A stretch of DNA of 53,842 bases from a virus (Duplodnaviria > Caudoviricetes), in IMG/VR virus record IMGVR_UViG_3300020125_000547, positions 1 to 53,842 of that record; one strand, 5' to 3'. This document shows positions 193 through 51,232 of this stretch, in pieces. The notes under the pieces were generated by a model, which saw nothing but the letters and a program-made list of their open reading frames with translations, was not told where the DNA came from and did not search any database. The position numbers were made by a program, and so were the translations under genes. The stretch's first letter is position 1; the number at the start of each line of letters is the position of its first letter.

Positions 193-197
193 ACCAC

Positions 198-224
198 CTA
201 GGACGCGCGACGCCGGCGCGATCT
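198..224 (-). promoter_or_regulatory. ECF-like promoter motif copy 1 (AGATC-N15-GTCCTAG)
   Basis: Matches the motif seen 10 times; its TAG is also the stop codon of the upstream gene. Confidence 0.7.
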
Positions 225-1203: not shown

Positions 1204-1530
1204 CTACTCGTTCCGCGCGATCGCCGCGTTCGCGAACATCATCGCCTCGTCGAGGTGCGTCATCGCGAGTGCCTGCTCGCGCGACACCGGCGTGTTGCCG
1301 ACGATGATCAGCGCGAGCTCGCGCACCTTGGCGCGAATCAGCTCGTACCGCGCTCGCTGATCACCCTGCGGTGGATGGTACTCGAAGCGCTCGTTGAGGG
1401 CGCCGAGCGTGCGCTCGTCGAGCGGGTACTTCGGCGCGGGCACGGCGGCCGGCGTCGGGATCAAGGGAACGCCCGGGGGCGGGGTCGCGGTGGTCGGTGC
1501 CTGGGCGCTATCGGAAGCTTCGTTTGACAT
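1204..1530 (-). CDS. Acb2/Tad1-like helical-hairpin protein, candidate immune-signal sponge
   Basis: RFEYHPP..Q..RYE.IR...SREQALAMTHLDEAMMFANAAIAR resembles the Tad1 SRE..ALTH.EEA.MW segment. Confidence 0.7.
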   Translation of the reverse strand: MSNEASDSAQAPTTATPPPGVPLIPTPAAVPAPKYPLDERTLGALNERFEYHPPQGDQRARYELIRAKVRELALIIVGNTPVSREQALAMTHLDEAMMFANAAIARNE

Positions 1531-1537
1531 GACGGAT

Positions 1538-1566
1538 ACGATAGCGCGCGACCCGGGCGGCGTCAA
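1538..1566 (-). promoter_or_regulatory. Sigma70-like promoter, probably leaderless
   Basis: TTGACG-N17-TATCGT-N7-ATG on the minus strand. Confidence 0.65.
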
Positions 1567-2241: not shown

Positions 2242-2292
2242 GACCATGTAGGACGCGCGAGCGCCCGGCCGTCCTACGTGGCATGAAGAATC
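2232..2292. promoter_or_regulatory. Bidirectional palindromic ECF-like promoter (copies 2 and 3)
   Basis: GGACG-N15-GTCCTAC reads on both strands; the inverted repeat extends into both ATG AAG AAT starts. Confidence 0.7.
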
Positions 2293-3308
2293 CCGACGCT
2301 GTCTCTGACCGCACCTTGGAGCTGATCATCATCCGCGCCGCCGCCGACCTGGTGCGCGGCAGCCCCATCATGATCACGATGCACAACCTGCGCACAGCGA
2401 TCGAGGAGTTAGCCCGACGCAACCCGGAGGGCTATCCGCTGGTCGGGGGTGTACCACGCCACCCGCTGCCGTGGCCGGAAGCGCCGGACACCGACGCCCT
2501 GGGGCGTCGTCAGCGGGCGGAGCCCCAGTTCATCCTTTCCCCGGAAGATGAAGTCCGATACCACAAGCACGCAAGCCACGCGGCGGCGTCGATCCCAGGC
2601 CGGCCGGAGACCTGGCCGGTCGACGATCTCGAAAACGCGACCGGCAGAGCGCTCGAGGCCGCTGCCCCCGGCCACCCACGGATCCCGATGCGGGTCCACA
2701 GCCCCTTCGGGTCGCACCCCGAAGGCGATCAGGAGTACCGCGACCGGCTGCGCGCCGTGAGCCGGCACGACATCGGCCGGATCCACTGTCGGGCGCTCGA
2801 TGTCGCGGAGCACACCTTCGACGCCATCGGGCCGAAGGGCGGGTACTCAGCCTCGAGCGCGTCGCGCGCGCTGACGGTCGGGATCATCACCGCGATCTTC
2901 GAGGAGATCGAGCGCCGCCGCACCAGCGCCACCGCTCGCGCGGAGCACACGTACCGACCCGGGGACGAGGTCGAAGTCGACGCGTCCGCACACGGCTGGT
3001 GTCCGGGCACGGTCAAGCACGCGAACGACTGGGGCGTCGTGGTGTACTGGTCGTACGGCGACGGCAAGGTCACCGGCTCGACGCCCGTGCCGTGGGACGA
3101 GGTGCGCGGCCGCGTGCGCCGACGCGGTGAGTATCAGGTCGGCGACGAGGTCGAGGTGAAGACCGCCGGCCCTGGGAGCCGCGGGGGCGCGGTATGGGAA
3201 GCGGCTGCGGTTCAGCGCGTCGAGGCCGACAGGATCGACGTCGAGTTCAAGTACCGCAAGGCCGGTGGCTGGTTCTCGCGCAATCTCGTGCGGCGGCCGA
3301 CCCGCTAG
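2283..3308 (+). CDS. Protein with two C-terminal Tudor/Agenet-like (SH3-fold) repeats
   Basis: YRPGDEVEV...GWCPGTV and YQVGDEVEV...WEAAAV...IDVEF. Confidence 0.6.
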   Translation: MKNPDAVSDRTLELIIIRAAADLVRGSPIMITMHNLRTAIEELARRNPEGYPLVGGVPRHPLPWPEAPDTDALGRRQRAEPQFILSPEDEVRYHKHASHAAASIPGRPETWPVDDLENATGRALEAAAPGHPRIPMRVHSPFGSHPEGDQEYRDRLRAVSRHDIGRIHCRALDVAEHTFDAIGPKGGYSASSASRALTVGIITAIFEEIERRRTSATARAEHTYRPGDEVEVDASAHGWCPGTVKHANDWGVVVYWSYGDGKVTGSTPVPWDEVRGRVRRRGEYQVGDEVEVKTAGPGSRGGAVWEAAAVQRVEADRIDVEFKYRKAGGWFSRNLVRRPTR

Positions 3309-3683
3309 CTGGCGGCCGCGACCCACAGCCCCGACGGCCCCAGGTACGCGAGCTCGGCGCGGGTGATCGGCTCGCCGTCGCACACGAAGGTCCCCTCGAG
3401 CCGGTGGTACACCGCGCGCTCGGCGTTCGCGGGCCGGCTAACGCCGCCGCGCCATCGGCCCACCGCGAACGCGTGTACGTTCCGAGCGCCCGAGGCCGCG
3501 CGGCGCTGACCGCCGGCGCGCACCAACGAAGCGGACTTCGGCGAGCACGATCTCGTCGGCGTGCGCGACGACGTGCGTCCGCTGCATCACCGAGTACCAC
3601 ACGCCGGCGCGCAGGAGGTTGCGGTACACCCAGACCTCGCGGTCCGAATCGATCGACCGGGCCTGATAGCTGTGGATGGTCAT
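3305..3683 (-). pseudogene. Conserved phage protein split by a 1-nt frameshift near 3527 (pseudogene or sequence error)
   Basis: N-half (VWVYRNLL...VVAHADEIVLAEVRF) and C-half (RNVHAFAVG) of one recognisable family lie in different frames. Confidence 0.6.
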
Positions 3684-3688
3684 GCGGA

Positions 3689-3714
3689 CTAGGACGCGCG
3701 GCGCTGACCGATCC
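3689..3714 (-). promoter_or_regulatory. ECF-like promoter motif copy 4 (GGATC-N14-GTCCTAG)
   Basis: 5 nt before ATG 3683; its TAG is also the upstream stop. Confidence 0.65.
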
Positions 3715-4024
3715 CGACCGCGCGGAGCACCCGCCGCCACCACGGCGCCCGGTCCGCCGCGACGCCGACGCGGATCCGGCACAGGATCGCCTCCGCCCGC
3801 GCGTCTTCCTCGGCGGCGCGCTGCGGCGCCACGCAGAGCATCAGGTCGCGGAGCGCCTGCTCGGCGAGGCCGTCGGCGTCGGGCCCGCGCCGGCACCGGA
3901 CCTCGAGGTAGCGGTCGACGTACGCCGCGAGGTCGAGCGCGGCGCTGTGCCGGCCATCCGGGTTCTGCGCAACGAGCGCGTGGCGGCGCTGCAACGAGCG
4001 GAAGACCTGGTCGGGGGTCCTCAC
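3689..4024 (-). CDS. Hypothetical protein
   Basis: GTGA overlap with the upstream stop. Confidence 0.55.
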   Translation of the reverse strand: MRTPDQVFRSLQRRHALVAQNPDGRHSAALDLAAYVDRYLEVRCRRGPDADGLAEQALRDLMLCVAPQRAAEEDARAEAILCRIRVGVAADRAPWWRRVLRAVGIGQRRAS

Positions 4025-4917
4025 GCGTCCCCCTTGCCGGCCACCACGACGGCCTCCTGCATCCGCCCCTCGAGCACGGTCTGACACCGCGCGCAGCCGG
4101 GCAGGTGTTCGCGGAACTCCTGCGCGAGCCGTCCCGCGGGGCCGCCGGTTAACTGTCCGTCGAAGAACCAGTCGAGGTGGTCGCACGGTGTTGGTCGCGG
4201 GGCCGCCGCGCGCCGTCGCCATGCCTCGATCCGGGCCGCCGACATCCGCTGCTCCTCCGCGATCTGATACTCGAAAACGGCCTGCGGGAAGAACTCGCTG
4301 AGCATCATCCAGCGGCAGGGTAAGTCCGAGGCACCCCAGCCGCCGCTGTCCAGGTAGGCGGGGTTGATGCCATCGAGCCCACGGTGCTTCGCGCTCGACC
4401 ACCGCTCGGGCGCCGCGGCTGTGTTCCCGTGCGGCCAGACGACCTCGGCTGCGAGAATCGGCCCGTACTTGCCCTCGAGCTCCTCGGCGAGGTCCGGATC
4501 GCACAGCCGCTGCGTCGGGCGGATGAAGACGAGCGGGCAGCAGATCTGCCCCTTCACGAAGCTCGGCGCGGTGCGCCAGTGCGCCTCGGCGGCCGGGATC
4601 CCGGCCATGTACTCGACGAGCGTCGTCCAGTAGCCCGCAGCGAGGTCGGCGTCGCCGATCGAGTGTCCGCGACCGCCGGGCGGCCCGCTCCGCCAGTAGC
4701 CGGCGTCCGGTGGTGACCCGTCGGGGTTACGCAGAGCGTCGAACGTCGTGCGGTGCACGAGGCGTAGCTCGGGCACGATGTCGATCGGCCTGTGCTCGCC
4801 GCCGACGTACGTGATGATCGTCAGCGCCACGAACGCGGTCCCGTCGCGCGGCGCCGGGGCGTCGCCTCCAGTGCCGCCACCCATCACAGGACGCCAGTTG
4901 AATCGGTCGACCGTCAT
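4021..4917 (-). CDS. Hypothetical protein with C-terminal zf-HC2 (ZAS anti-sigma-type) zinc motif
   Basis: C-terminus CDHLDWFFDGQL...FREHLPGCARC fits HxxxCxxC preceded by DGxL. Confidence 0.6.
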   Translation of the reverse strand: MTVDRFNWRPVMGGGTGGDAPAPRDGTAFVALTIITYVGGEHRPIDIVPELRLVHRTTFDALRNPDGSPPDAGYWRSGPPGGRGHSIGDADLAAGYWTTLVEYMAGIPAAEAHWRTAPSFVKGQICCPLVFIRPTQRLCDPDLAEELEGKYGPILAAEVVWPHGNTAAAPERWSSAKHRGLDGINPAYLDSGGWGASDLPCRWMMLSEFFPQAVFEYQIAEEQRMSAARIEAWRRRAAAPRPTPCDHLDWFFDGQLTGGPAGRLAQEFREHLPGCARCQTVLEGRMQEAVVVAGKGDA

Positions 4918-5195
4918 CGCAGAGCCTCGGGGGTCAGGTGACAACCGCCGTCGATGCAGACCACGACCGGACGCACGATGACCTCGGGGTGCCCGGTCTG
5001 CACCAGCTCGACCGGGCGGCACTGGGCCGCTCCTGGCTCGCCGAAGCACGCCATCAGCCGGCCGGTCAGGTCCGTGGCGCGGGCGGTCATCGCCGCCAGG
5101 GACAGCGGCGACGGCCAGGGATCGACGCGGCCGTGCACGGCGAAACAGAGACCGCACAACACGAACGACAACAGAAAACCAAGTAACATTCTCAT
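4914..5195 (-). CDS. Small membrane or secreted protein
   Basis: Hydrophobic N-terminus; ATGA overlaps. Confidence 0.55.
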   Translation of the reverse strand: MRMLLGFLLSFVLCGLCFAVHGRVDPWPSPLSLAAMTARATDLTGRLMACFGEPGAAQCRPVELVQTGHPEVIVRPVVVCIDGGCHLTPEALR

Positions 5196-7830: not shown

Positions 7831-7835
7831 GTTCC

Positions 7836-7862
7836 CTAGGACGCGCGATGCCTAGGGATTCC
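7836..7862 (-). promoter_or_regulatory. ECF-like promoter motif copy 5 (GGAAT-N15-GTCCTAG)
   Basis: Heads the long leftward operon. Confidence 0.65.
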
Positions 7863-10222: not shown

Positions 10223-10767
10223 CACACCACCCCCAGTTTCCCGAGCTCGACGTGCACCGTCGCGAGGTCGACCTCGAGCGCCGCGGTGTTCTCGTGCTGC
10301 CCGAGCCGGCGCGCGGTCTGGAGGAGCTTCGCGTACAGCGCGCCGGCGATCGCGCGGAGGTTCGCGAGCTCGGCCGGGTCCGCGCCGACCGGCGTGCGCA
10401 GCCCGTTCGCGATCGCCGCGAGGGCGCGTTCGCTCGGCGGCGGCGCGACGTGGCGCGGTCCGGCGAGCAACTCCTCGGGCGTCGCGCGCTCGATCATCTC
10501 GCGCGTCACGTCGCCGTGGGGGACGGAGATCGCAGCCGGAAACAGTGCGTCGTACGCCGCGCGCCAGCCGTCGCGCTGGTTCAGCGGGTGTCCGTCGTGC
10601 CAATCGACGCGCCGGGTCTCGACCGTGATCGCCTTCGGCGAGACGCAGTCGTTGGGGTAGTTGGCGTTCTCGATCACCCGGCCGACGGCCGCGCCGCCGA
10701 TCCGGTCGTGATCGACCACCAGCAGGGTCACACGGTGAACCTCGGTCGGGATGGTTTCGTCGGTCAT
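10222..10767 (-). CDS. Hypothetical protein
   Basis: 181-aa ORF, GGAGG RBS. Confidence 0.65.
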   Translation of the reverse strand: MTDETIPTEVHRVTLLVVDHDRIGGAAVGRVIENANYPNDCVSPKAITVETRRVDWHDGHPLNQRDGWRAAYDALFPAAISVPHGDVTREMIERATPEELLAGPRHVAPPPSERALAAIANGLRTPVGADPAELANLRAIAGALYAKLLQTARRLGQHENTAALEVDLATVHVELGKLGVV

Positions 10768-11003
10768 TGCTGGCCCTCCGGCCGGAGCGCCGCGGTCTCG
10801 CGACGGGTCTTGCGCTCGTCCGCGAGCTCCTGCCCGTACCGCGGGCCGGTCTGGTAGCGCTGGCGCCGGAGCGTCGCGGCGCGCTCGATGCGGTGATAGA
10901 ACTGGCCGTCCGCGGTGACGGTCGGCACGAGGTCGAGGTGGCGTCGTCGGGTGATCCGGCGGCGGGCGGTGCGCTGGCTCGTTGCGCGTCGGTAGGTGCT
11001 CAT
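10764..11003 (-). CDS. Basic hypothetical protein
   Basis: ATGA coupling to the downstream gene. Confidence 0.45.
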   Translation of the reverse strand: MSTYRRATSQRTARRRITRRRHLDLVPTVTADGQFYHRIERAATLRRQRYQTGPRYGQELADERKTRRETAALRPEGQQ

Positions 11004-11226
11004 TGCACTCGGTCCCCTGCGATCGCCGTGCCGCGGCGCGCGGACGCGCAAGCGCCCGGGGCCGCGTCGCGGGCCGCGGTCGCGCCGGCCGAGTGTGGCG
11101 TAACAGATACAGGGACGTGTACCCGGCGCATCACAGACGCAACGCGTTAGACGCAGCGGGTCGTAGGTAAACTCGCGGTTTAGGAGCGCGCCCAACCGGG
11201 CATGCGAAAAGCATTGATAAGGGGGT

Positions 11227-12600
11227 ATGACGACTTTCAAGGCGTTTCCAGCCGGCCGGGTTGAGGCCGCGCGCGACGAGCTCGCGAAGGCGCAGCGCCG
11301 CCTCGAGCGCGCCGCGGTGCGCGCCGGCCAGGACGCGCCGGCCGCTCCGGCCGCTCCGGTGCTCACTGTGGTGCGCGAGTACGTGCTGAGCCGCTGCGCC
11401 AGCTACAGCGGCTGCGGCCGGGAGTGGGAGGGCGTCGGCCCGTGCCCCAGCGGGCGGACGTGCGGCCCGGTCAAGCGCCGCGCGCTGGTCGACCTCGAGC
11501 TCCAGGCGCCGCCGGCGCGGCTCGCGGGCTGGGACTTCCTCGCGGTCGTCGAGCCGCTGACCGGCGGCAATCTGATCCGGCAGGTCCCCGGCGCCGAGGT
11601 GGCCGAGGGCGAGCTCGCCGCGTGGCGTATGGGCCCGATCGCGTGCGACCACTGCAAGGCCGCGCGGCACCGCAAGGAGACGTTCATCCTGCGCGGCGAG
11701 GGTGTGGAGGTGCCGGCCGGCATGGTCCGGGCCCGGGTCTACAAGCAGGTCGGCCGCCAGTGCTTGGCTGCGTTCCTCGGCGGCCGGAGCGCAGCCGACA
11801 TCGTCGCCCGGTTGGGTTGGGACGCGATCGTGCGCGGCGCGGGCGGCGAGGAGGAGGAGGAGGGCTTCGGTGGCGGGCGCGGCGCCCTCGACCTGTACGA
11901 CCCGGCCGAGTTCCTGGCCTGGTGCTGCGCGGTCGCGCGCCTCGACGGGTTCGTGACGCGGAAGATGGCGTCGGAGGCGAGCGACGCGGGCGGCGGCCGC
12001 CGCGCCACCTCGAGCGAGGTCGAGTGGATGCTCGGCCCGGCGCCGACCGGCGATAGCCGGCCCGACTGGGTGGCTGCACGCGAGCGCCTCGCGCCCACCG
12101 AAGGTGACCAGACCCGCGCCGCGGCGACCCTGGCCTGGGCGCGCGCGCTGCCCGGTCGCGGCGACTACGAGCAGAGTCTCCGGCTGGTCGCCTCGCAGGA
12201 AGCCTGCCAGCCGAAGCACGCCGGGATCCTCGCGAGCGCGGTGCCGGCGTACGAGCGTGAGCTCGGCTTCGCGGTGAAGCGCGCGGCGCGCGGCCCAGGC
12301 GAGCACTACGGCGCGGTCGGGGAGCGCTACGAGCTCACGCTCACGGTCGAGAAGGTGGTGCCGATCGAGGGCGGGCAGTGGGGCCCGGCGGTGATCGCGA
12401 CCATGCGCGACGCGGCCGGCCGGTGCTTCATATGGCGGACCACCTCGAGCCCGGGCGCGGTCGGTACGACCCTCGCCCTGAAGGGCACCGTGAAGAAGCA
12501 CAGCGAGTTCCGCGGCGAGAAGCAGACCGAACTGACCCGGTGCCGGGTGGAGCGTCCGAAGGCGACGGAGGCAGGATCCGCGCCGTCGTGCGCGTCCTAG
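11227..12600 (+). CDS. Conserved phage protein with CxxC motifs and C-terminal OB-fold-like domain
   Basis: CDHC...R.RKET, QVGRQCL..FLG, HYGAVGER...LKGTVKKHSEFRGEKQTELTRC. Confidence 0.7.
   Translation: MTTFKAFPAGRVEAARDELAKAQRRLERAAVRAGQDAPAAPAAPVLTVVREYVLSRCASYSGCGREWEGVGPCPSGRTCGPVKRRALVDLELQAPPARLAGWDFLAVVEPLTGGNLIRQVPGAEVAEGELAAWRMGPIACDHCKAARHRKETFILRGEGVEVPAGMVRARVYKQVGRQCLAAFLGGRSAADIVARLGWDAIVRGAGGEEEEEGFGGGRGALDLYDPAEFLAWCCAVARLDGFVTRKMASEASDAGGGRRATSSEVEWMLGPAPTGDSRPDWVAARERLAPTEGDQTRAAATLAWARALPGRGDYEQSLRLVASQEACQPKHAGILASAVPAYERELGFAVKRAARGPGEHYGAVGERYELTLTVEKVVPIEGGQWGPAVIATMRDAAGRCFIWRTTSSPGAVGTTLALKGTVKKHSEFRGEKQTELTRCRVERPKATEAGSAPSCAS
12574..12600 (+). promoter_or_regulatory. 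ECF-like promoter motif copy 6 (GGATC-N15-GTCCTAG)
   Basis: 6 nt before the sspB ATG; its TAG is also the upstream stop. Confidence 0.75.
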
Positions 12601-12606
12601 GACCTC

Positions 12607-13113
12607 ATGAAGACCTGGATCACGTGGGAGCGCGAGGGCGCGCCAGCTGCGCGCGTCGAACTACCGGCCGAGGTCGCCGAGGAGATCGAGCGTCACGCGG
12701 CGGAGATCGGCGCGCCCGGCGCCGTTGACGTCGTCGCGTCGCTGGTGCGCAGCGTGGCCAGCGAGCTCCGCCAGCGGCCGCCGTTCGACGGCGAGGCGGC
12801 GGCTGCGACGCTGCGAGCGCTGCTCGACCAGGGCGCGGTGATGCTCACGCTCCGGCCGCAAGCGCACGGCGTCGACGTCCCCGAGGCGCTCCGCGACAGC
12901 CCGATCGTGACGCTGCGGTTCGGCTACGGCCTGACCCCGCCGATCCTCGGCCTGGAGGTCGACGCGGACGGGGTGCGTGGAACGCTGACCTTCGGCGTAA
13001 TGCCGTACTATTGCGTGATTCCCTGGCGCGCCGTGCTGATCGCGGCGCTCGAGCGTCCGACCGGGCCCGCCGCGCCGCCGGCATCACCGCGACCGAAGCT
13101 CAGGCTCGTGTAG
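12607..13113 (+). CDS. sspB: SspB-like ClpXP adaptor
   Basis: GVDVPEAL...TLRFGY..PPI.GLEVDADGVRGTLTFG..PYYCVIPWRAV; ClpX-binding-like tail RPKLRLV. Confidence 0.8.
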   Translation: MKTWITWEREGAPAARVELPAEVAEEIERHAAEIGAPGAVDVVASLVRSVASELRQRPPFDGEAAAATLRALLDQGAVMLTLRPQAHGVDVPEALRDSPIVTLRFGYGLTPPILGLEVDADGVRGTLTFGVMPYYCVIPWRAVLIAALERPTGPAAPPASPRPKLRLV

Positions 13114-13139
13114 GATCCTGATGCGGTGGCGCGTCCTAG
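13113..13139 (+). promoter_or_regulatory. ECF-like promoter motif copy 7 (GGATC-N15-GTCCTAG)
   Basis: 7 nt before ATG 13147. Confidence 0.75.
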
Positions 13140-13146
13140 GTGCCGA

Positions 13147-14238
13147 ATGCGCCACCGTCCCCAGCACGTCACAGGATCTCGCGAGCAGGTCCGCGCGGTC
13201 CTCGCCTACAAGAACACTCAGATCAACCGCAACGTCTCCCATGTTGGCCTGGGCGTCACCGCCCAACTCACGCAGAAGACGCTCCTCGCCGCCGGCTACC
13301 ATGCCGAGACGTGGGCGGTCGACAGCGCGCCGGAGCTCGAGCTCCGGCTCGCCGCGGCGCAGATGACCGCCGCGCGGGCCGGCGCTCATCCGGTCTCGCA
13401 CGTCGTCATCGCGGCGCCGTGGATCGAGGCTGTGCAGCTCCAGGGGATGATCGCGCGCCACCCGGACGTCCAGTGGGTCGTGGAATGTCATAGTAACTTC
13501 GGCTTCTTGCAGGCCGACCCGGCCGGCGCGCGGCTCATGCGCGACGCGGCGACGCTCGACGCCGGGAGCCACAACTTCCGCGTCGCCGGGAACTGTCGGA
13601 AGTTCTGCGACACGTGGGCCGCGGCCTACGGCGGCCGAATGATGCTCCTGCCGAACCTGTACGACGTCAGCACGATCGTCCCGGTCGGGCAGCGGCAACC
13701 CTGGCAGCCCGGGCACACGCTGCGCGTCGGACTGTTCGGCGCCGTGCGGCCGCTCAAGAACCACACGACGGCGGTCGCCGCGGCGCTGCGGCTCGCGGCC
13801 GACCTGCGCAACGACGTGGAGATCCACATCTCGGAGGGTCGGGTCGAGAGCGGCGGGGTGGCGCTCGACGCCGTCGCGCAGCTCGCCGCGAACGTGCCGG
13901 GCGCGCGGCTCGTGCCTTCGGGCTGGCGCTCGTGGCCGGAGTTCCGGCGCCTGGTAGGCACGATGCACGTGTTGCTGCAGCCGAGCTTCACCGAGAGCTT
14001 CAACGTCGTGACCGCCGACGGGATCGCGAGCGGCGTCGCCTCGGTGGTCGGCGACGCGATCGACTGGGTGCCGCGCGACTGGGTCGCGTGTGCCGACGAC
14101 GCTGGCGACGTCGCGCGGGTTGCGCGCCGGCTGCTCCACGACGCGCATGCGGTGGCCGCGGGCCAGGCGGCGCTGCGCGCGTACGTGGCCGATGGGCTGC
14201 GGCACTGGGCGAGCTACCTGACTGGGGGCGCGGTGTGA
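13147..14238 (+). CDS. GT-B glycosyltransferase (GT4-like)
   Basis: FGAVRPLKN and LLQPSFTESFNVVTADGIASGVASV motifs. Confidence 0.8.
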   Translation: MRHRPQHVTGSREQVRAVLAYKNTQINRNVSHVGLGVTAQLTQKTLLAAGYHAETWAVDSAPELELRLAAAQMTAARAGAHPVSHVVIAAPWIEAVQLQGMIARHPDVQWVVECHSNFGFLQADPAGARLMRDAATLDAGSHNFRVAGNCRKFCDTWAAAYGGRMMLLPNLYDVSTIVPVGQRQPWQPGHTLRVGLFGAVRPLKNHTTAVAAALRLAADLRNDVEIHISEGRVESGGVALDAVAQLAANVPGARLVPSGWRSWPEFRRLVGTMHVLLQPSFTESFNVVTADGIASGVASVVGDAIDWVPRDWVACADDAGDVARVARRLLHDAHAVAAGQAALRAYVADGLRHWASYLTGGAV

Positions 14239-14404
14239 TCACGATGCCATCCGAGTTCGACGCCGGGGTCGTGCGCGGTCACGATCCGGGCGACGAGGAC
14301 CCCGGCGAGCCGGCCGCGCGGCGCCAGATCCTCTGCGAGCGCCAGGCGTGGAAGGCCGACACGTTTCCTCTGCGGTTCGGGACGCCGATGGGGATGGCGC
14401 CGCG

Positions 14405-14674
14405 ATGACCGAGCCCGCGCGCCCCTACTCGACGCTGCGCGACGGGAAGATCGTCTGGGTCTATCCGGGCGAGGCGTTGCCGGCGGCGAAGGTCCGCTCG
14501 CGCCTCGAGACCGACTCGGAGGTGCGAACTCGTCTCAACGCCGAGATCAAGCGCCGCCGCGCGGCCGATCCCTTCTGGCTCTGGTTCAAGCAGCCCGGCA
14601 GCGGGAAGGACCTCGACGCCGACCTGAAGGAACTCGGGCTGCCGGCGCGGCAGATGGTCGACGAGGTCGGATGA
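14405..14674 (+). CDS. Hypothetical protein
   Basis: ATGA-coupled ORF. Confidence 0.55.
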   Translation: MTEPARPYSTLRDGKIVWVYPGEALPAAKVRSRLETDSEVRTRLNAEIKRRRAADPFWLWFKQPGSGKDLDADLKELGLPARQMVDEVG

Positions 14675-15201
14675 GCCTCCTCGCTCTCGAACTCGGCGCG
14701 CTGATCGCGCTCCTCACCGGCCTGTGGTCGCAGGTCGCCGCGTTCGCGACGTGGCTGTCGGGCTGGCTCATCGTGCGCCACCGGCTCGACTACTCGGCTG
14801 CGCCGCCGCTGCTCGCGTTCCTGCGCGCGACGTCGAGTCGGCACCGCGTCGCGGCGATGGGGGTGCACGGCTCCGACCTCGAGTACGTGCGCCCGCTCGA
14901 CCGGATCTGGCGCGTGTTCCACGTGCACACCGATCGGTCGTCGCACTGGTTCCTCGCCGGGCGGCGAGGTGGCCCGGGATGGCGACCGATCCGCTACTCG
15001 TTCCGCGCCGGGACGGGTGGCGAAGGCAGCAGCCACACGCCCGGCGATCACCAGGACGCACACCTGCTGGTGATCTCGTTCTTGCGCGGGACCGTTGACT
15101 GGCACGGGCTGCTCGCCGCGGTCGCGGCGTGGGCGGACGCCGGTGCCGGCGCGGAAGCGGAGCTCCGGGCCGCAGTCCAGGCGCTCCAGGATCTCGAATG
15201 A
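14671..15201 (+). CDS. Hypothetical protein with N-terminal transmembrane segment
   Basis: Hydrophobic N-terminus; ATGA overlaps at both ends. Confidence 0.55.
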   Translation: MSLLALELGALIALLTGLWSQVAAFATWLSGWLIVRHRLDYSAAPPLLAFLRATSSRHRVAAMGVHGSDLEYVRPLDRIWRVFHVHTDRSSHWFLAGRRGGPGWRPIRYSFRAGTGGEGSSHTPGDHQDAHLLVISFLRGTVDWHGLLAAVAAWADAGAGAEAELRAAVQALQDLE

Positions 15202-15500
15202 AGATCGGGATTGCTGGCTGTGGCGGGTGCCCGTTCCTCTACACCGGCAGCGAGGTGATCGAGCGCCGGTGTCGCGCGGTCGACCGGAGCCTGCCGGTCA
15301 ACACCCGGTCGCCCTACGGCGGCGAGCCGACGCCCGACTGGTGCCCGGCCCGCGAAGGCGTCGAGGTCCGGCTCGTAGCGCCGCCCGCGCGCAAGGTGAG
15401 CGCGCTCGCGAAGATGGCTGCGGCGCAGCCGACACGAACGCCGGGCGACCCCGATCCCTACGCGGGCGCGCTCGACGACTGGGGCTGGGACCTGGCCTAG
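15198..15500 (+). CDS. Small Cys-rich protein
   Basis: CGGCPF...C...PDWCP pattern common in phage small proteins. Confidence 0.55.
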   Translation: MKIGIAGCGGCPFLYTGSEVIERRCRAVDRSLPVNTRSPYGGEPTPDWCPAREGVEVRLVAPPARKVSALAKMAAAQPTRTPGDPDPYAGALDDWGWDLA

Positions 15501-17338
15501 CCCGCCCGCGCCGAGAATAGCGACACCCAGCCGACCTTCTTCGCGCGGCGCTCGCTGAGGCACTGGCTCATGTAGTCGATGCGGTCGTCGCGCGAGCCGT
15601 GTGGGAACGCCGCGAACTCGTCGACGAAAGTCTCCTTGCTGTCGCCCGGGGGCTTCACCAGCCACGCCGCGCCGTCGAGCAGGTAGATCAGGCCGGCCTC
15701 GAGCATAGGCTCCATGAACTCGGACCGCTGCGCCTTGTCGCCCTTGCCGGTCGGCTCGTAGTCCTTGACGACCGCGATCACGGCCTCGCCGGCTGCGTTC
15801 TTCAAGCCGTTGCCGATCGCCTCGCGAAGGTCCTGGATCATGCCCTCGCCGAGCGCCTTGTGCTCGATCCGGACGACGATCTTCGTCGTCCAGCCGGTGA
15901 GGTCGCTCGCGCGCGCGACCCCGCGCTTCATATGCTTCAAGGCGTCGTGCCAGCCGCACGGCCCCGGCGTCAGGTCCTCGAGCACGAACGCGCGCTCGGC
16001 CTTGCCGACGACGATCCCGAGCCCGAGCGCGCTCGCGGTCTTCTCGGTCGAGCCGCCGGTCGGGTCGATCGAGACCTCGACCCAATCGACGAGCAGCCGG
16101 CCGGCCTCGTCGCACTCGAGCACCCGCGCCGGCTCGCGCTCGCGCTCGGGCGAGATCCCGCGCGGCCGCATCCGCGGCGTGCCGTCGGCGGGGCCCCACG
16201 GGCTGTTGCCGTTGCCGCGAATCTGGAAGTATTTCCACAGGTTGAGCTTGAACTGGTTGCCCTCCTTGACGCCGGGCTCCTGCTCCATCTGCCCGGCGTA
16301 GCCGTGTGCGCGCAGCGTCGCCAGGCGCTCGGCGAGGTACTCGGGCGTGTAGCGGGCGTGCAGGACCTCGCCCTCCTCCTGGCGCCAGTCCTTCCACCCG
16401 AACGCGTTCGGCAGCCCGGCGACGCCGAGCTCGCACTGTCGACACTGGCACTTCGGCCGGCGCTTGAACCCCATCGGGATCCGCAGGTGGAACCAGCCGA
16501 GGTTGACGACGTGCTCGGAGAAGTCGCCCGGCCGCGCGCGCTGCATGATCGCGGTGCGGATGTTCCAGCGCGCGTCCGGTTGGCGCGAACTGATGTCGCC
16601 GTCGAACTTTTCGATCGCCTTGGCGATCTCTTCCGTCGTGTCATCCATCGCGTGCGCGTCGTCGAGGCAGGTCCAGTCGGAATCGAGCCCGATGACGTCG
16701 GAGCCCCACGCCTTTGCGCGCCGCGCGCCACCGGCGGTGTTGCCGATGCTCTGCAGCGCGTCCTGGTCGTCGCGGATGCGCCAGGCGCCGCCCTGGCTCG
16801 CGGGCCGACAGAGCACGAACAGGCGCTGGTACCAGTCGCCGGTGACGACGTCGCGGAACAGGCGCGCCGAGTCGAGCACGACGCCAGCGTTCGCCGAGAG
16901 GTACAGGATCCGAAGGAACGGCCAGCGAATCCAAGCCCATGCGTTGGCGAGGGTGAGCAGGATCGTCTTCAACGACCTGGGCGGGCAGTTGATCAGCAGG
17001 TTGGCTGCACGCGCGATCGCCGCCGGGTTGACCCGCTTGTGCATCGCGTCCTCGAGCTGCCCCTGGATGTGGAGGCAGATTGCGTCGAGATGCGGGCCCC
17101 ACTCGAGCGGCGTCGCTGCGAGCGCGGTTCGCTCCCACTGCTGGCGCGCGTAGTACGCGAAGCTCCGCTTGCAGCGCTCGGCGACGACGTGGTCGAGCGT
17201 GATCGGGACGTACTGGCGCTCCTCAGGCGGCGGAAGTGTCGGGCGCGGCGGCGCGGCGGCGTTCCGGCAGAGCGGGCAGCCGCCGGTGAGGCGCGCGAGC
17301 GCGTGGCCGCACGCGGCTGCCGGCGCGGCAGCGGTCAC
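15497..17338 (-). CDS. terL: Terminase large subunit
   Basis: LLINCPPRSLKT (Walker A), CLDDAH (Walker B), IMQR, SIDP and DDRIDYMSQ nuclease motifs. Confidence 0.92.
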   Translation of the reverse strand: MTAAAPAAACGHALARLTGGCPLCRNAAAPPRPTLPPPEERQYVPITLDHVVAERCKRSFAYYARQQWERTALAATPLEWGPHLDAICLHIQGQLEDAMHKRVNPAAIARAANLLINCPPRSLKTILLTLANAWAWIRWPFLRILYLSANAGVVLDSARLFRDVVTGDWYQRLFVLCRPASQGGAWRIRDDQDALQSIGNTAGGARRAKAWGSDVIGLDSDWTCLDDAHAMDDTTEEIAKAIEKFDGDISSRQPDARWNIRTAIMQRARPGDFSEHVVNLGWFHLRIPMGFKRRPKCQCRQCELGVAGLPNAFGWKDWRQEEGEVLHARYTPEYLAERLATLRAHGYAGQMEQEPGVKEGNQFKLNLWKYFQIRGNGNSPWGPADGTPRMRPRGISPEREREPARVLECDEAGRLLVDWVEVSIDPTGGSTEKTASALGLGIVVGKAERAFVLEDLTPGPCGWHDALKHMKRGVARASDLTGWTTKIVVRIEHKALGEGMIQDLREAIGNGLKNAAGEAVIAVVKDYEPTGKGDKAQRSEFMEPMLEAGLIYLLDGAAWLVKPPGDSKETFVDEFAAFPHGSRDDRIDYMSQCLSERRAKKVGWVSLFSARAG

Positions 17339-17422
17339 TGGTCAGCGAGGCGGTTTCCCGGGGACGTCGGCAGAATCACCCGGGAAGTATAACCTACTTG
17401 CGGCGTGAGCCGTGCCGGATGG

Positions 17423-17632
17423 TCACGGCCGCCGACTGCGCGCCCGCTTCTTGCGTAGCCGGGCTTTGTTCCCGCTTGCGCGGTTGATCTCGTCAACCGC
17501 GATACGCTGTTGATCCAGAAACGCGACGTGGCACTGGGAGCACCGCGGGTGCTTTCCTGAGGGTGCACCGCACTCGCAGATGCGATCGGTTGGCTCGTCG
17601 CTCAACTCGACCCCGGGAATCGTGGGGATCAC
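17423..17632 (-). CDS. Small zinc-finger protein
   Basis: CEC...CSQC; GTGA overlap. Confidence 0.5.
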   Translation of the reverse strand: MIPTIPGVELSDEPTDRICECGAPSGKHPRCSQCHVAFLDQQRIAVDEINRASGNKARLRKKRARSRRP

Positions 17633-18150: not shown

Positions 18151-18422
18151 AGGGTCGTCTCCGTCTCGGCCGCTTCGGCCGGGAACTCTTCGACCCCCAT
18201 CCGCAACAGCGCCACCGCGGCGCGCATGCGGTGCAGGGGGAGCGTCGAGTCACGGGCGATCGCGCCGATCGCGCCGACGACGGCGAGGCGCTCTTCGGCG
18301 GTGAGCTTGCCGACGTGGTCGACGAGCGCCTCGCCGGCGATGAGCCGGGGGAGTTCGGGCACCGGCGCGACGTTGCGGCGCGGCGGCAGCAGGACCGCCA
18401 AGATGGTCTCAATCGTTCTCAC
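18147..18422 (-). CDS. Hypothetical protein
   Basis: GTGA overlaps; GAGGA RBS. Confidence 0.55.
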   Translation of the reverse strand: MRTIETILAVLLPPRRNVAPVPELPRLIAGEALVDHVGKLTAEERLAVVGAIGAIARDSTLPLHRMRAAVALLRMGVEEFPAEAAETETTL

Positions 18423-18799
18423 GGGGTCTGGTCCTCGATCGCGATCGCGGCGGTGACTCTGCGGCCGGTGTTCATTGCGGCGAGTCGCTCCGCGAACGCG
18501 TCATCCTGCCCGATGATCCCGATCACCGCGTCGTCGGTGAGCAGGGTGAACTTGAGGCCGTCGACCGTGACCTCGGCGCCGAGCTGCGGCGGGAACACCA
18601 CGACGTCGCCGACGGCGCACTCGCACGGAATGATGTTGCCGTTCTCGGCGCGGCGGCCGCGCCCGACCGCGACCACAGTGCCCCGGTCGGCCTTCTTCTG
18701 CGCACTGTCCGGGATGATGATGAGGCCGACTTGCGCCGCAGGATCGTCGCGGCGGATCAGAACGTGGTTGCCCAGGGGGGTGATTTTGGGATATGCCAT
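18419..18799 (-). CDS. groES: Co-chaperonin GroES (Cpn10)
   Basis: PLGNHVLIRR...GLIIIPDSAQKK..RGTVVAVGRG...VGDVVVF...GAEVTVDG. Confidence 0.92.
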   Translation of the reverse strand: MAYPKITPLGNHVLIRRDDPAAQVGLIIIPDSAQKKADRGTVVAVGRGRRAENGNIIPCECAVGDVVVFPPQLGAEVTVDGLKFTLLTDDAVIGIIGQDDAFAERLAAMNTGRRVTAAIAIEDQTP

Positions 18800-18804
18800 G
18801 CACG

Positions 18805-18831
18805 CTAGGACGTCCGGTGCACGGACGATCC
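18805..18831 (-). promoter_or_regulatory. ECF-like promoter motif copy 8 (GGATC-N15-GTCCTAG)
   Basis: 5 nt before the groES ATG, no RBS. Confidence 0.75.
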
Positions 18832-20442: not shown

Positions 20443-20800
20443 CCCGCTCGCCATCGACTGCCAAGCATGCGCGGCCGGTCCCGGTGTGCTGTGCCCGACC
20501 GCGACCGGACTGCACTGGGCGCGTGCGAAGGCGGCGGGGATGACCCCGGCTGAGATGCTGGCCTGGCGGCCTGCGGAAAGGCGGCCTGCGGAGGGGCCCG
20601 TCGCACCCCCGTCGTCGCCCGCCGCCGGGCCGGCCGTCGTCGGCCGGCTGCCGAACGCCGACGACCTCGGGATCACGCTTGCCGCGCTCGCGGCTGCGTG
20701 CGACCTCGCCGAGCAGCACGGCGCGCCGACGGCCGAGGTCGCGCGGTTGCGCGCCGTCGGCTCGTCGGTCGCAAGAACCGACGCTCATCGGGCGTCCTAG
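20432..20800 (+). CDS. Zinc-finger protein
   Basis: CQACAAGPGVLC...H..R motif. Confidence 0.55.
   Translation: MPRDPLAIDCQACAAGPGVLCPTATGLHWARAKAAGMTPAEMLAWRPAERRPAEGPVAPPSSPAAGPAVVGRLPNADDLGITLAALAAACDLAEQHGAPTAEVARLRAVGSSVARTDAHRAS
20774..20800 (+). promoter_or_regulatory. ECF-like promoter motif copy 9 (AGAAC-N15-GTCCTAG)
   Basis: 8 nt before ATG 20809; its TAG is also the upstream stop. Confidence 0.65.
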
Positions 20801-20808
20801 GAGAAGAC

Positions 20809-26600: not shown

Positions 26601-27397
26601 AGGGCGAGCGCGCCAAGACCGGGCCGTGGGATCCGGATCGTTTTGCGTACGAGCAGGGTCATCTTGATCCGGACAACTTGCTGGGCGACCCTGACAAACA
26701 CGGTCACGTAAGCGCGGACTTCGACCCGAGCGACTACGACGAGAGCTTCGGACACACGGCCGAGAAGCATGCCGCCCTGGTGGCTACGTGGAACGCGGCC
26801 GCGGACGCCGATCGCACCGAGTACGAGCGGATCGCCGACAAGTGGAAGGCTGAGGAGAAGGCGCACGACGCCGCCGACAAGGCCGCGTTCGAGCGCGTGC
26901 AGAAGGCGGTCGCGGCGCACGCGGACGCCAGGCGCCAGGCGGCCGACGACGCCCAGGCGGCGCTCGAGGATCTCCACGGCAAGCAGACCGCGGCGCTGGC
27001 GACCGCGAAGACGATCGACAGGGCGGTCGCGAAGCCGCTCGCGGCGGCAAAGACCGAGGTCGGCGAGGAGGACTTCTCTCCTTCCGATCATGCGCACGAT
27101 CGCATCGCGGAGCACCCGGCGCTCGCGACGGCGACGCCGGCTGACGAGGACGACGACGAGCGTGTGTTCGCCAGCGAGCCGCACGAGCGGCTCTATCAAG
27201 GCGCGCAGGGCGCATTCGGCGAGGACGTCCAGACCGCGCGGAGCACGCGCGAGGTGCTCGGGCAGCGACACGGCGCGCAAACGCAGGGTGCGCTCGAGGA
27301 GGCGCGCGACCACACAGCGGCGCTGGTGCGGGCGCTCTCGCAGGTCTCCGGCCGCGCGCCGGCGCTCGCGAAGCCGAGCCGGAAGAAGCCGCGGTGA
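23612..27397 (+). CDS. Portal protein (DUF1073 family) with ~770-aa C-terminal extension
   Basis: IHESRLLIFPG, GWGEAVL, AAACDMPLTLLFGTSPAGLNATGESD, IKFRPLWQES. Confidence 0.9.
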   Translation: MSEDGTEPVRIKGRFAPGRSGNPAGGARRARSDAAPPGGRPSRHDADWVNFFTGQGVLGRDKRLGAHFNVTPLSFDQLMHLWLGDDLAARAVEMIPKEALRQGYDVTVADSQEGTDEDTDGLDPSEASAEITDELERLGANDAIEIAGSYERGYGGGAILIGANDGQADLTQPLNLKAVRSLDFLNPLEARECMPIYAYGDPRAPKYGEPEIYRIITRSVLPSRQGFSAQTMEIHESRLLIFPGIRVSRFQPLAARAGWGEAVLTRIYRVLRDFNAAYANTGVLINDFSQAVVKIAGLWEALAQDAGAFNQRLQAMEAGRSTVNAIAIDAGDSYERQQTPVTGLSDLLERFGVRLAAACDMPLTLLFGTSPAGLNATGESDIRSFYDRVASYQQRKILPKLRQICQILFRTIGSRSEPVNWSIKFRPLWQESAKDQASAAAALAQADTAWTTASILSSDEIAKARWGKGQEFAGITVDFSAREAQDDLGSQPGDQEVVTLPGTGGAAGTEVAAQAFNGAQISSMLEIVKAATARQIPMGSATAIIQTAFNLSPDKAKAITSSVAAAPLPPAVGATEPDEPDEDPEPEGPAPTPDETDGPAPKAGEARGDSTPPPRCEACGLEIDRDAADSACVLCGKEYIPPPPSGSARPQPDVVPPGPPAAPDPNTPPVRMITAEDRADACARPGAQRLDFDPDQPRAPDGKWGSGGSGTDPGRAPDDRTAAAVRDPAFTAPNRERLIAAGDRVRANYPRDQRATDAVHEEAQKEIRAEAGRILREQAVVGSDPRMQAELERVRGDMPVARVGDESAKQHDVLMERVTERRAELAQHDEARAAGLVPKVPDEALKAYQTAAAQHTPALDAAHAEVDAASQKALDALGKYSARAGDEERDALFEGDKAPGDAEELAASYAHAADRLGGKGDVDESGDFRDAPPSQDRYREMVDPERHAPPADVEIPDHFRDEETGELKSKWEPDPSWEPDHVTHEEAQKLNFEEHEEGERAKTGPWDPDRFAYEQGHLDPDNLLGDPDKHGHVSADFDPSDYDESFGHTAEKHAALVATWNAAADADRTEYERIADKWKAEEKAHDAADKAAFERVQKAVAAHADARRQAADDAQAALEDLHGKQTAALATAKTIDRAVAKPLAAAKTEVGEEDFSPSDHAHDRIAEHPALATATPADEDDDERVFASEPHERLYQGAQGAFGEDVQTARSTREVLGQRHGAQTQGALEEARDHTAALVRALSQVSGRAPALAKPSRKKPR

Positions 27398-50197: not shown

Positions 50198-51232
50198 ATG
50201 CCAGGGTTCGACGATAGTTTCGACAGCTCGGCCTTCGAGGCGGACGAGACCGCGCAGGCGGGCGAGGAGCTGTCGAACTCGGTGCCGGATCCGACCCCCG
50301 CCGCGCGTCCTACAGCGGGTACCGCCGTGTTGTCCGAGGTTACCGCATACACACACCTGATCTACGGACTCGTCGATCCGCGGGATCACCTCATCCACTA
50401 CGTGGGGCGATCGGCGAACGGGCTACACAGGCCACATCAGCACAAGACGAAACATGTTTCCGCAGCCATGCGCGATTGGCAGAGCGAACTGACCGCACGT
50501 GGTTTGATGCAGGAGATCGTTGTTCTCGAGGTCGTGCCAACCGAGAGAGCGTACAGTCCGGCGGTCAACGTGTTTCTACCGTGGTGGCTCGACGGTCGGA
50601 ACACACGCGCGCTGAGTGCCGCGGAGGGTTGGTGGATCGCCTACGGGCGCGCGAGTGGGTGGCCGCTGTTGAACATCGCGGACGGCGCCAGTGGCGGACA
50701 CTACCACAAGGCCAGACCCGAGACTGTTGAGCGACGGCGTGCAAAACTGATCGGCAAGCGGCGTAGTGCTGAGTATCGTCGTCGGCAGAGCGAGCGTTTC
50801 AAAGGACGCCCCCAGCCACAACTCAGAACAAAAGAGGTGCATGAAAAGTCGGCAGCCAGCAGACGCGGCCTGAAGCGAACACCAGCACAGCGTGCAAAAA
50901 TGTCCGTAGCTCAGTCCCAACGCCACCGTGATGCGGTACCTCCGTGGTTACCGCTGGTACTCGGCGCGGCTCCCGATCGTGTCGTTGGCGAGGTAGCGGG
51001 CAAGTCCGTACCTACGATCTGCGCTTATCGAAACACCTTGGGTATTCCGACATTTCGCACCGGCAAGTGCTACAAAGAATCGTTGCCGGTTTGGTTTCCT
51101 CTGGTCGCCGGAACAGTGACAGATCGCGTGGTCGGATCGTTAGTTGGCCTATCTGAGTTTACGATAAGCAAACATCGTAACAGCCTGGGCATTCCGGCAT
51201 TCCGTGTAACCAGCCGCAGCGAAGGACGCTGA
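50198..51232 (+). CDS. GIY-YIG homing endonuclease fused to a duplicated N-terminus of the downstream gene
   Basis: IYGLVDPRD...YVG, E.WWI, LLNIADG, NUMOD-like basic repeats, two C-terminal DRVVG...R..LGIP repeats. Confidence 0.85.
   Translation: MPGFDDSFDSSAFEADETAQAGEELSNSVPDPTPAARPTAGTAVLSEVTAYTHLIYGLVDPRDHLIHYVGRSANGLHRPHQHKTKHVSAAMRDWQSELTARGLMQEIVVLEVVPTERAYSPAVNVFLPWWLDGRNTRALSAAEGWWIAYGRASGWPLLNIADGASGGHYHKARPETVERRRAKLIGKRRSAEYRRRQSERFKGRPQPQLRTKEVHEKSAASRRGLKRTPAQRAKMSVAQSQRHRDAVPPWLPLVLGAAPDRVVGEVAGKSVPTICAYRNTLGIPTFRTGKCYKESLPVWFPLVAGTVTDRVVGSLVGLSEFTISKHRNSLGIPAFRVTSRSEGR
50287..50313 (+). promoter_or_regulatory. ECF-like promoter motif copy 10 (GGATC-N15-GTCCTAC), internal to the ORF
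   Basis: 13 nt before in-frame GTG 50327, which precedes the nuclease domain. Confidence 0.55.

Follow-up and report, generated by a model that had tools for sequence, protein, structure and literature searches.

An RHH-SspB fusion protein encoded by a phage, a candidate adaptor or modulator of the host ClpXP protease

In bacteria, SspB normally delivers proteins to the protease ClpXP. A gene for an SspB-type protein that lies directly behind a promoter-like motif in the DNA of a virus of the Caudoviricetes raises the question of what such a protein may do to the proteolysis of its host, and together with which other phage genes it may be made. The window considered here is the whole stretch of 53,842 nt that was analysed (IMG/VR record IMGVR_UViG_3300020125_000547), and the features discussed are collected in Table 1. 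The reading preferred here, with a probability of about 0.6, is that the gene product (P0001) is a ribbon-helix-helix (RHH)-dimerised ClpXP adaptor or modulator that is made alongside morphogenesis genes.

Table 1. Features of the SspB-type gene and copies of the promoter-like motif in the window
Feature	Position	Strand	Remarks
RHH-SspB fusion ORF (P0001)	12607..13113	+	168 aa + stop; GC3 0.89; N-terminus MKTWITW kept in relatives
RHH domain, residues 1-57	12607..12777	+	Extra strand 3-7; RHH fold of strand 15-19 with helices 21-33, 39-56; predicted to form the homodimer interface
SspB substrate-binding domain, residues 58-150	12778..13056	+	Helix 62-75 and small beta-barrel
Linker and tail, residues 151-168	13057..13110	+	Pro/Ala-rich 11-aa linker; RPKLRLV ClpX-binding-type tail at 13090-13110
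Motif copy upstream of SspB gene	12574..12601	+	TAG of the upstream ORF (12598-12600) inside; ATG 12607 5 nt on
Second exact motif copy	13113..13140	+	Overlaps SspB stop by one base; in-frame ATG 13147 6 nt on, weakly glycosyltransferase-like ORF
Motif copy before phage groES	18804..18831	-	ATG 18799 4 nt on; then two small ORFs and large terminase, same strand
Motif copy before portal/head string	20774..20801	+	ATG 20809 7 nt on; rightward string including portal and head-morphogenesis genes
Motif copy with -35-like block shifted one base	3688..3715	-	4 nt upstream of ATG
Motif copy upstream of 77-aa ORF	7835..7862	-	Distance 61 nt
Motif copy near contig left end	197..224	-	Downstream gene runs off the record
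Motif copy before homing-endonuclease-like ORF	50287..50314	+	In-frame GTG (50327) 12 nt on

The ORF encodes a real SspB-family protein. The SspB core that had been proposed from the sequence alone is borne out by the family profile, by relatives that match Pfam SspB (PF04386) and by the predicted fold, although P0001 taken singly scores 15.6 bits (E 0.017) with PF04386, under the 27-bit gathering cut-off. Its close relative P0004 reaches 26.6 bits and the cellular proteins P0005-P0007 pass the cut-off with 28.6-32.1 bits, and PF04386 is matched at E<=1e-3 by 78 of the 98 aligned relatives. One further relative (P0013) carries the NCBI name 'ClpXP protease specificity-enhancing factor SspB [Haliangium sp.]'. 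An eight-sequence profile (A1) searched against PDB finds four E. coli SspB chains with E values of 7.4e-6 to 6.1e-5 (the best being 8et3_Y), and the Agrobacterium and Caulobacter orthologues at E ~0.1. No family was found for P0001 in PHROGs and no match in NCBIfam, and a phmmer search of PDB with the single P0001 sequence gave as its sole match a nickel-binding protein, which was set aside as due to chance.

The AF2 model of P0001 (pLDDT 91.9) has the fold expected of this family. Among the Foldseek matches listed, ranks 1-16 (14 rows) consist of SspB-type entries only, all at probability 1.00, including SspB, the C. crescentus SspB orthologue and 2nys, with target-normalised TM scores of 0.52-0.67. 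VIA-align places four SspB-type chains at Z 9.8-11.3 over residues 49-152, the next unrelated row having Z 6.5. The substrate-binding fold is the same as in E. coli SspB (PDB 1OX8/1OX9/1YFN/8ET3), the alignment with 8et3_Z giving Z 11.3 and rmsd 2.3 over 90 residues at 26% identity. Core positions that are invariant or nearly so in the family are kept, i.e., V89, P92, L103, G106, I113, D115, L116, T126, L127, F129, C136, P139, and W140.

A tail of the RPKLRLV type docks SspB onto the N-terminal zinc domain of ClpX. In P0001 the LRLV end pointed out by the sequence-only reading is indeed part of such a tail, a C-terminal LRVVK-like ClpX-binding (XB) motif, which the profile aligns with RPALRVV of E. 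coli SspB (8et3_Y). Its residues L165, L167, and V168 are invariant across eight relatives, and 95 of the 157 family proteins fetched have the pattern [LIVM][RK][LIVM][LIVM] within their 12 C-terminal residues. On the host side, the ClpX zinc-finger domain that would serve as the receptor was found in all three Kofleriaceae/Haliangiales genomes tested. Because an SspB-type protein is here combined with a tail resembling a ClpX tether, an action of P0001 on ClpXP substrate choice is plausible.

The 11 residues of linker between core and tail in P0001 compare with roughly 50-60 in E. coli and Haliangiales proteins (about 60 in E. coli SspB itself), and according to tether-shortening work on the E. 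coli protein, such a short linker could reportedly impair delivery and favor a blocking role. P0001 might then be a decoy or anti-adaptor, a short-tethered dimer that occupies the ClpX N-domains but delivers nothing productively; host SspB and other substrates that depend on the N-domain would be kept out, and phage proteins would thereby be spared from ClpXP. A conserved tail on so reduced a linker, and a dimer geometry set by a foreign domain, would suit that role; but the core keeps all the family-invariant and near-invariant positions listed above, which would be needless in a protein that only plugs ClpX, and the decoy is considered unlikely.

The foreign domain lies at the N-terminus. 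An extra segment of ~70 aa had been noted there; the extension exists, but it is shorter (about 57 aa), and it is predicted to have an RHH-like fold that makes a homodimer. In VIA-align, 25 of the 50 rows listed map to residues 8-65 and have titles that name RHH or RHH-type proteins, including PutA, CopA(SO), TacA, ParD2, Arc, and omega. These matches cover a beta-alpha-alpha fold of ~45 residues with Z 5-6.2 and rmsd 1.5-3.8, the best being PutA RHH (Z 6.2, rmsd 1.5, 44/44 residues aligned); Z values under 8 are commonly seen with VIA, but the RHH targets are just 43-55 residues long. No Pfam RHH model reaches its cut-off for the N-domain of P0001 or of its relative P0009: residues 1-60 of P0001 score 13 bits with RHH_5 (cut-off 26), and P0009 scores 15.9 bits with RHH_1 (cut-off 20.5), 15.7 with FitA-like RHH (cut-off 27) and, weakly, 19.8 bits with the VapB antitoxin model.

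Two copies of P0001 are predicted to form a complex with a score of 0.64, the best of three controls having 0.00; a mark of 0.64 is reached by 20 of 30 one-chain-pair structures and by 1 of 23 single-chain structures. At least 63% of the contacts agree between prediction runs, the partner pLDDT is at least 76, and the confident part of the interface is confined to residues 1-55. The pass may reflect likeness to RHH dimers that have already been solved. The interface of the E. coli SspB dimer is the SspB helix, which the predicted P0001 dimer does not use. Both proteins would thus be dimeric, P0001 by prediction, but in P0001 the predicted interface is carried by the extra RHH domain. Like the CopG/Arc/MetJ superfamily of RHH proteins, with the ParD, TacA, VapB, and FitA antitoxins, the N-domain is modeled as beta-alpha-alpha in an intertwined dimer; unlike them, it has one further strand at its N-terminus (residues 3-8), which the model places at the dimer axis, and it is acidic, scores under every Pfam RHH cut-off, and is fused to an SspB domain.

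Since RHH domains that bind DNA or belong to antitoxins are among the fold matches, and P0009 weakly matches VapB, FitA, and CopG-type (RHH_1) models, the RHH part could instead be the functional head of P0001, as a DNA-binding regulator, by bringing ClpXP to DNA-bound proteins, or by targeting an RHH partner such as an antitoxin or repressor in trans. The domain is, however, acidic (pI 5.0, net charge -3.4), and its outward-alternating strand positions, as read from the alignment, include Glu18, which is invariant, but no basic residue that is conserved; charge and Glu18 argue weakly against sequence-specific DNA binding by the ribbon. A tblastn search for N-domain paralogues in the window gave nothing significant (best E 0.15), and the homodimer prediction is strong, which leaves a functional head quite unlikely. 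The palindromic hexamers GGATCC and CCTAGG were considered as paired RHH operator half-sites, an idea that was dropped because the two differ in sequence and the domain is acidic.

The trans-targeting form would have P0001 capture a specific RHH-type protein, either on DNA or by exchanging subunits with it, and hand it to ClpXP when the morphogenesis genes switch on. It is judged improbable; if true, it would make P0001 a phage-encoded programmable degradation switch composed of an antitoxin-like domain and an adaptor. A host antitoxin, a defense regulator, and a phage early repressor are candidate targets.

The full RHH-SspB architecture is rare. Searches of two libraries, of 5.8 billion clusters and 1.84 billion representatives, turned up only five metagenomic proteins with it. 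With identities of 44-77%, these five have retained the complete architecture and share 50 invariant positions, which speaks for selection. Among 1,242 family hits, P0028 looks by eye like another candidate RHH-SspB fusion. The N-domain alone, searched among proteins of 92-294 aa, is found in P0001-P0003 only. Neither tblastn of P0001 against 50,697 cultured-phage records nor a search of the cultured-phage database with the DNA of positions 11000-17500 gave a match. In IMG/VR, a scan with one alignment (A4) found nothing, while another (A5) gave a single SspB core without a tail (L040); a scan with P0001 itself led to L001, whose 148-aa ORF was rejected as spurious because LDQGAVMLT is the only word in common and its neighbors are tail-like genes. 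A sequencing-run search listed no RNA run for the locus, and one DNA run contained a small share (0.07) of its words.

Rarity in the two libraries, and the lack of a match in the cultured-phage records, would be expected of a decaying passenger of host origin that has no function. Such a passenger is very improbable: the frame is intact with a GC3 resembling that of neighboring genes, the architecture is kept at 44% identity in another contig, and the gene has its own upstream motif copy.

The substrate-binding domain is closest to SspB of Haliangiales/Kofleriaceae myxobacteria, and the likely host order is Haliangiales. Cellular SspB occurs in 137 of 147 genomes of this order, a tally that includes one unpublished genome, G040 (136 of 146 without it). 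The core of the cellular proteins (P0005, P0013) is 35-50% identical to P0001 within the stretch that matches, which is for the most part residues 50-151. P0005-P0007 and P0013 share with P0001 a C-terminal tail, in their case HLKLV(D/E), but they are 250-270 aa long, their linker is long, and their N-terminal ~115 aa differ from the N-domain of P0001. None of the Haliangiales genome matches carries the N-domain, most starting after about residue 40 and a few reaching residues 12-31 at low identity. The source phage is a soil phage.

The motif in front of the gene has the form GGATCC-N12-GCGTCCTAGG and is present in eight strong copies in the window. Exact copies number 2 (0.00 expected) and copies within three mismatches number 7 (0.88 expected), a count reached by 0 of 100 shuffles. 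That the SspB gene lies directly behind it, as the sequence-only reading had it, is confirmed, and the start at 12574 given there is the start of the motif, since the motif spans 12574-12601. Start codons follow five of the copies at 4-7 nt; therefore the mRNAs, if transcription starts from the motif, would be leaderless or nearly so. A scan of 10700-15600 for the sigma-70 consensus gave 0 sites, with no plus-strand terminator. A related contig (L027) has three motif copies, of which one heads a 110-aa ORF followed by the SspB homologue. The motif heads the string from groES to terminase and the portal/head string, and therefore looks like a phage morphogenesis-class promoter; this suggests such a class rather than a stress-regulon promoter. 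Expression of the SspB gene would be late, as judged only by the genes that share its motif.

A different role had been proposed for the motif and SspB together, i.e., a stress-sigma circuit with proteolytic positive feedback. A host ECF or other stress sigma would use the motif, and phage SspB would speed the ClpXP-dependent loss of an anti-sigma, or of a phage protein with a ZAS motif, so locking on its own regulon. ECF promoters have GGAAC-like -35 and CGTC-like -10 blocks with a spacing of 16-17 nt. The GGATC and CGTC blocks present in the motif copies resemble these elements; their spacing is shorter, 14 nt. The link of groES with the motif that this circuit also drew on stands, a copy preceding the ATG of phage groES; the strings headed by the motif, with terminase and with the portal and head genes, suggest a morphogenesis class rather than a stress-sigma regulon. 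E. coli SspB does deliver the RseA fragment to ClpXP, by the account in PMC5587285 (citing Flynn 2004).

Searches with Sigma70_r2 and r4_2 found no sigma domain in the window (the record being 89% complete), and a Pfam scan of 59 ORFs found no sigma or anti-sigma family. In 61 genomes of Haliangiales, the order taken as host by inference, the motif has 4 matches as against 5 for the reversed control. The supposed ZAS protein, ORF 4021-5157(-), does have the HxxxCxxC motif, but its match with zf-HC2 is under the cut-off (16.7 bits, cut-off 22.2) and covers profile positions 17-35 only. ZAS domains are typically N-terminal in anti-sigma factors, and this HxxxCxxC is ~20 residues from the C-terminus. 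With no sigma domain found in the window and the motif at control level in Haliangiales, the feedback loop is not upheld, and the circuit as a whole is regarded as highly improbable.

In the adaptor reading, transcription of the gene would start from the two-block promoter-like motif, which is specific to the phage, giving a leaderless or nearly leaderless mRNA, and the product would be a three-part protein with an RHH-like homodimer head, an SspB substrate-binding domain, and a very short linker with RPKLRLV. Through its two tails the dimer would tether to host ClpX, and ClpXP substrate choice would be changed during particle assembly. Of the possible substrates, those usually bound by the SspB groove, e.g., ssrA-tagged chains, would be the likeliest.

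Phage SspB homologues have already been reported, as gp18 of Pseudomonas phage pf16 (PMC5587285) and gp039 of Erwinia phage RAY (10.1101/2023.02.24.529968), and the RHH fusion is a variant of this type of protein. All three are phage-borne SspB-like ClpXP adaptor candidates. According to PMC5587285, pf16 gp18 closely resembles the SspB of its host but lacks part of the disordered region. The descriptions available for pf16 gp18 and RAY gp039 mention no RHH fusion.

P0001 indicates that phages can rebuild the adaptor, an RHH dimerisation domain replacing the host-specific N-terminal region and the tether being cut to 11 residues. Its gene is placed under a putative phage-specific promoter class common to groES, terminase, and head genes, and the motif itself may be a promoter from which an uncultured group of myxobacteria-type phages makes leaderless transcripts. 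If P0001 tethers to ClpX, it would be a minimal adaptor that could serve directly as a scaffold for degradation tools, and it would be a compact natural case of a virus reprogramming the regulated proteolysis of its host during assembly.

The SspB identity of the core of P0001, the 168-aa window protein, is secure. Taken alone, the protein scores 15.6 bits with Pfam SspB, below the cut-off of 27, and searches of PHROG, NCBIfam and, with the single sequence, the PDB give no match. A word-indexed search returns eight proteins, the query itself included, and an exhaustive phmmer search 1,242 representatives at E<=1e-3. The cellular relatives P0005–P0007 exceed the Pfam cut-off (28.6–32.1 bits), PF04386 is matched by 78 of 98 aligned relatives, and an eight-sequence profile matches E. 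coli SspB chains in the PDB (E 7.4e-6 to 6.1e-5). The AlphaFold2 model, based on the 98-sequence alignment, has a mean pLDDT of 91.9. Listed Foldseek ranks 1–16 (14 rows) hold SspB-type entries only (SspB, the C. crescentus SspB orthologue, 2nys), with probability 1.00 throughout, and VIA-align places four SspB-type chains on model residues 49–152 at Z 11.3, 11.0, 10.1, and 9.8, the next, unrelated row being at Z 6.5. Together, profile, relatives, Foldseek and VIA-align lead to acceptance of the SspB core proposed in the sequence-only reading, despite the Pfam score of the single sequence. The start codon is fixed by the N-terminus MKTWITW, which is conserved in relatives, and GC3 of the ORF (0.89) is similar to that of neighbouring genes.

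The LRLV tail noted in that reading is also confirmed. P0001 ends in ...PASPRPKLRLV, the profile alignment to E. coli SspB reaches the C-terminus, with the family consensus rGkLrLv over RPALRVV, and L165, L167, and V168 are invariant in the eight-sequence alignment. Of 157 fetched proteins, 95 have the pattern [LIVM][RK][LIVM][LIVM] within their final 12 residues. Only 11 residues link the last core strand (143–148) to the tail, whereas this stretch counts approximately 50–60 in the myxobacterial proteins and in E. coli SspB. So short a tether gives a decoy or anti-adaptor role some, though lower, probability. Delivery of the usual groove clients, e.g., ssrA-tagged chains, is most probable, because the core retains every family-invariant position.

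The extra N-terminal segment is present, but spans approximately 57 residues in the model and not the 70 first estimated. It consists of strands 3–7 and 15–19 and helices 21–33 and 39–56, and a ribbon-helix-helix (RHH) fold is indicated by several kinds of evidence. Of the 50 matches listed by VIA, searched exhaustively, 25 align to residues 8–65, all titled RHH or RHH-type, including PutA RHH (Z 6.2, rmsd 1.5, 44/44 residues), CopA(SO), TacA, NikR, ParD2, Arc, omega, and MazE N-domains, among others. Sequence profiles stay below cut-offs, with RHH_5 at 13 bits on P0001 residues 1–60, and RHH_1 at 15.9, FitA-like RHH at 15.7, and VapB antitoxin at 19.8 bits on the metagenomic relative P0009. 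Structural neighbours in ESM Atlas, taken as leads only, include ParD, CopG, NikR, and TacA clusters.

A two-copy complex prediction of P0001 scores 0.64 (best of three controls, 0.00). Among proteins solved as one-chain pairs, 20 of 30 attain this value, against one of 23 among those solved as single chains. Contact agreement between runs is 63% or higher and partner pLDDT is at least 76. Confident contacts all lie within residues 1–55, where the two copies of strand 3–8 pair over the axis and the two copies of helix 2 pack together; since RHH dimers are solved, this result may reflect likeness to them. The N-domain is acidic (pI 5.0, net charge -3.4), and its strand has an invariant Glu18 and no conserved basic residue. 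No paralogue of the domain was found in the window. The bolder reading, of trans-targeting or a DNA-linked role, draws on the presence of an RHH head and has a low probability; DNA binding appears doubtful, and we read the N-domain mainly as a dimerisation module.

Five proteins, all metagenomic, were the only ones found with the complete RHH-SspB architecture (P0001–P0004 and P0009; 44–77% identity). Among cellular relatives with a named source, the nearest belong to Kofleriaceae/Haliangiales MAGs and Haliangium sp. An SspB homologue, usually single-copy, occurs in 137 of 147 Haliangiales-order genomes (136 of 146 without the unpublished genome G040); these homologues are 35–50% identical to P0001 over the matched part, mostly residues 50–151, and all lack the N-domain. 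The ClpX zinc-finger domain was present in all three of these genomes tested. Another viral contig (L040, IMG/VR, 93.6 kb) encodes at 2938–3309 (+) a 123-aa SspB core (40% identity to residues 65–144) with neither RHH head nor LRLV-type tail. Six further SspB-core proteins from the search of representatives (P0033, P0044, P0060, P0065, P0098, and P0109) have, by eye, lipoprotein-like signal peptides (e.g., ...LLIAACE...) and no C-terminal ClpX-binding motif, which would suggest that SspB-fold domains are used outside the cytoplasm.

The relatives and the G+C content (69.7%) make a Haliangiales-type myxobacterium the likely host. The window is an entire IMG/VR virus record, linear and 53,842 bp long, with an estimated CheckV completeness of 89%, and 50,697 cultured-phage records hold no DNA or protein match to the SspB locus. 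Among 59 ORFs with GC3 support, Pfam and PHROG searches identified portal, head-morphogenesis, major capsid, tail sheath, baseplate, tape-measure, and large-terminase families, together with groES, an Acb2/Tad1-hairpin protein, and homing endonucleases; sigma factor, integrase, and repressor families were absent from these ORFs.

Features of the window around the SspB gene and the promoter-like motif
Feature	Position	Strand	Observation
Acb2/Tad1-hairpin ORF	1204-1566	-	120 aa; 69.5 bits, above cut-off; Pfam match 1213-1380; candidate sponge for cyclic-nucleotide defence signals (anti-CBASS/anti-Thoeris type)
Motif, weak	2247-2274	-	from position matrix
Motif	3688-3715	-	from position matrix; start codon 4-7 nt downstream
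ZAS-like ORF	4021-5157	-	Cys, then HLPGCARC (HxxxCxxC), within C-terminal 40 residues
Motif	7835	-	start codon 61 nt downstream
ORF directly upstream of sspB	11227-12600	+	457 aa; phrog_2319, E 1.4e-43, function unknown; C-terminal ~90 residues recur in four other PHROGs
Motif	12574-12601		start codon 4-7 nt downstream
Stop of upstream ORF	12598-12600		TAG embedded in motif (CCTAGG)
RHH-SspB gene	12607-13113	+	168 aa
Stop of sspB	13111-13113		TAG embedded in motif (TAGGATCC)
Motif	13113		start codon 4-7 nt downstream
groES	18422-18799	-	Cpn10, 79 bits; apparently ~125 aa; appears to extend ~30 aa past Cpn10 match
Motif	18804-18831	-	start codon 4-7 nt downstream; precedes groES, two small ORFs and large terminase, same strand
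Motif	20774		start codon 4-7 nt downstream; heads rightward string with portal and head-morphogenesis genes
Portal-family ORF	23612-27397	+	1,261 aa; match confined to first ~490 residues; ~770 unassigned, hence may be a portal fusion
Motif	50287		start codon 12 nt downstream

The motif GGATCC-N12-GCGTCCTAGG has two exact copies in the window against 0.00 expected, and seven within three mismatches against 0.88 expected, a number reached in none of 100 shuffles. The SspB gene lies directly behind a copy, as had been proposed, coordinate 12574 being the start of the motif and not of the gene. If these copies act as promoters, their mRNAs would have little or no leader. CCTAGG occurs only nine times in the window and is present in five strong copies; with stop codons embedded in the motif, gene ends overlap the next promoter-like element. 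The related contig encoding P0009 (L027) has the motif three times, each with N12 spacing, which shows its conservation within this phage group. Between one of these copies (718–745) and the SspB homologue stands a 110-aa ORF, 5 nt past the copy; thus SspB remains downstream of a copy, not always directly.

The sequence-only reading proposed that the phage SspB could accelerate anti-sigma degradation and so lock on the sigma that transcribes its own regulon. The analysis does not support such a loop. No Sigma70_r2 or r4_2 domain was found in the window (record 89% complete), the motif is at control level in 61 Haliangiales genomes (GGAWYC-N12-GCGTCCTA, four in total vs. five for the reversed control; four in the 54-kb phage), and its context is morphogenesis genes. 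The GGATC-to-CGTC distance is 14 nt; ECF promoter spacing is longer. The proposed ZAS-motif protein does have HxxxCxxC, but zf-HC2 reaches 16.7 bits against a cut-off of 22.2 and the motif lies C-terminally, where anti-sigma factors do not usually have it; no family match covers the remainder of the ORF. Most simply, the motif can be read as a promoter class that is specific to the phage and goes with its morphogenesis genes. The factor recognising it may be phage-encoded, and the record may lack 11% of the genome. In the proposed mechanism, an RHH-dimerised SspB-type protein would dock on ClpX N-domains via two RPKLRLV tails and could alter ClpXP substrate flow during particle assembly.

Phage SspB proteins have precedents. 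Gp18 of pf16 was called the first SspB homologue in any phage, in an article whose authors raised the same tmRNA and RseA/RpoE ideas (PMC5587285), and RAY gp039 was described as a cytoplasmic 'SspB-like ClpXP adaptor' (10.1101/2023.02.24.529968). The literature searched, as far as its text was available, and including a full-text search with 'SspB' and 'ribbon-helix-helix', gave no description of an RHH-SspB fusion; a match to these two terms concerned SspB of the phosphorothioate system SspBCDE. RHH-SspB is a new architecture of a phage auxiliary gene already on record in pf16 and RAY.
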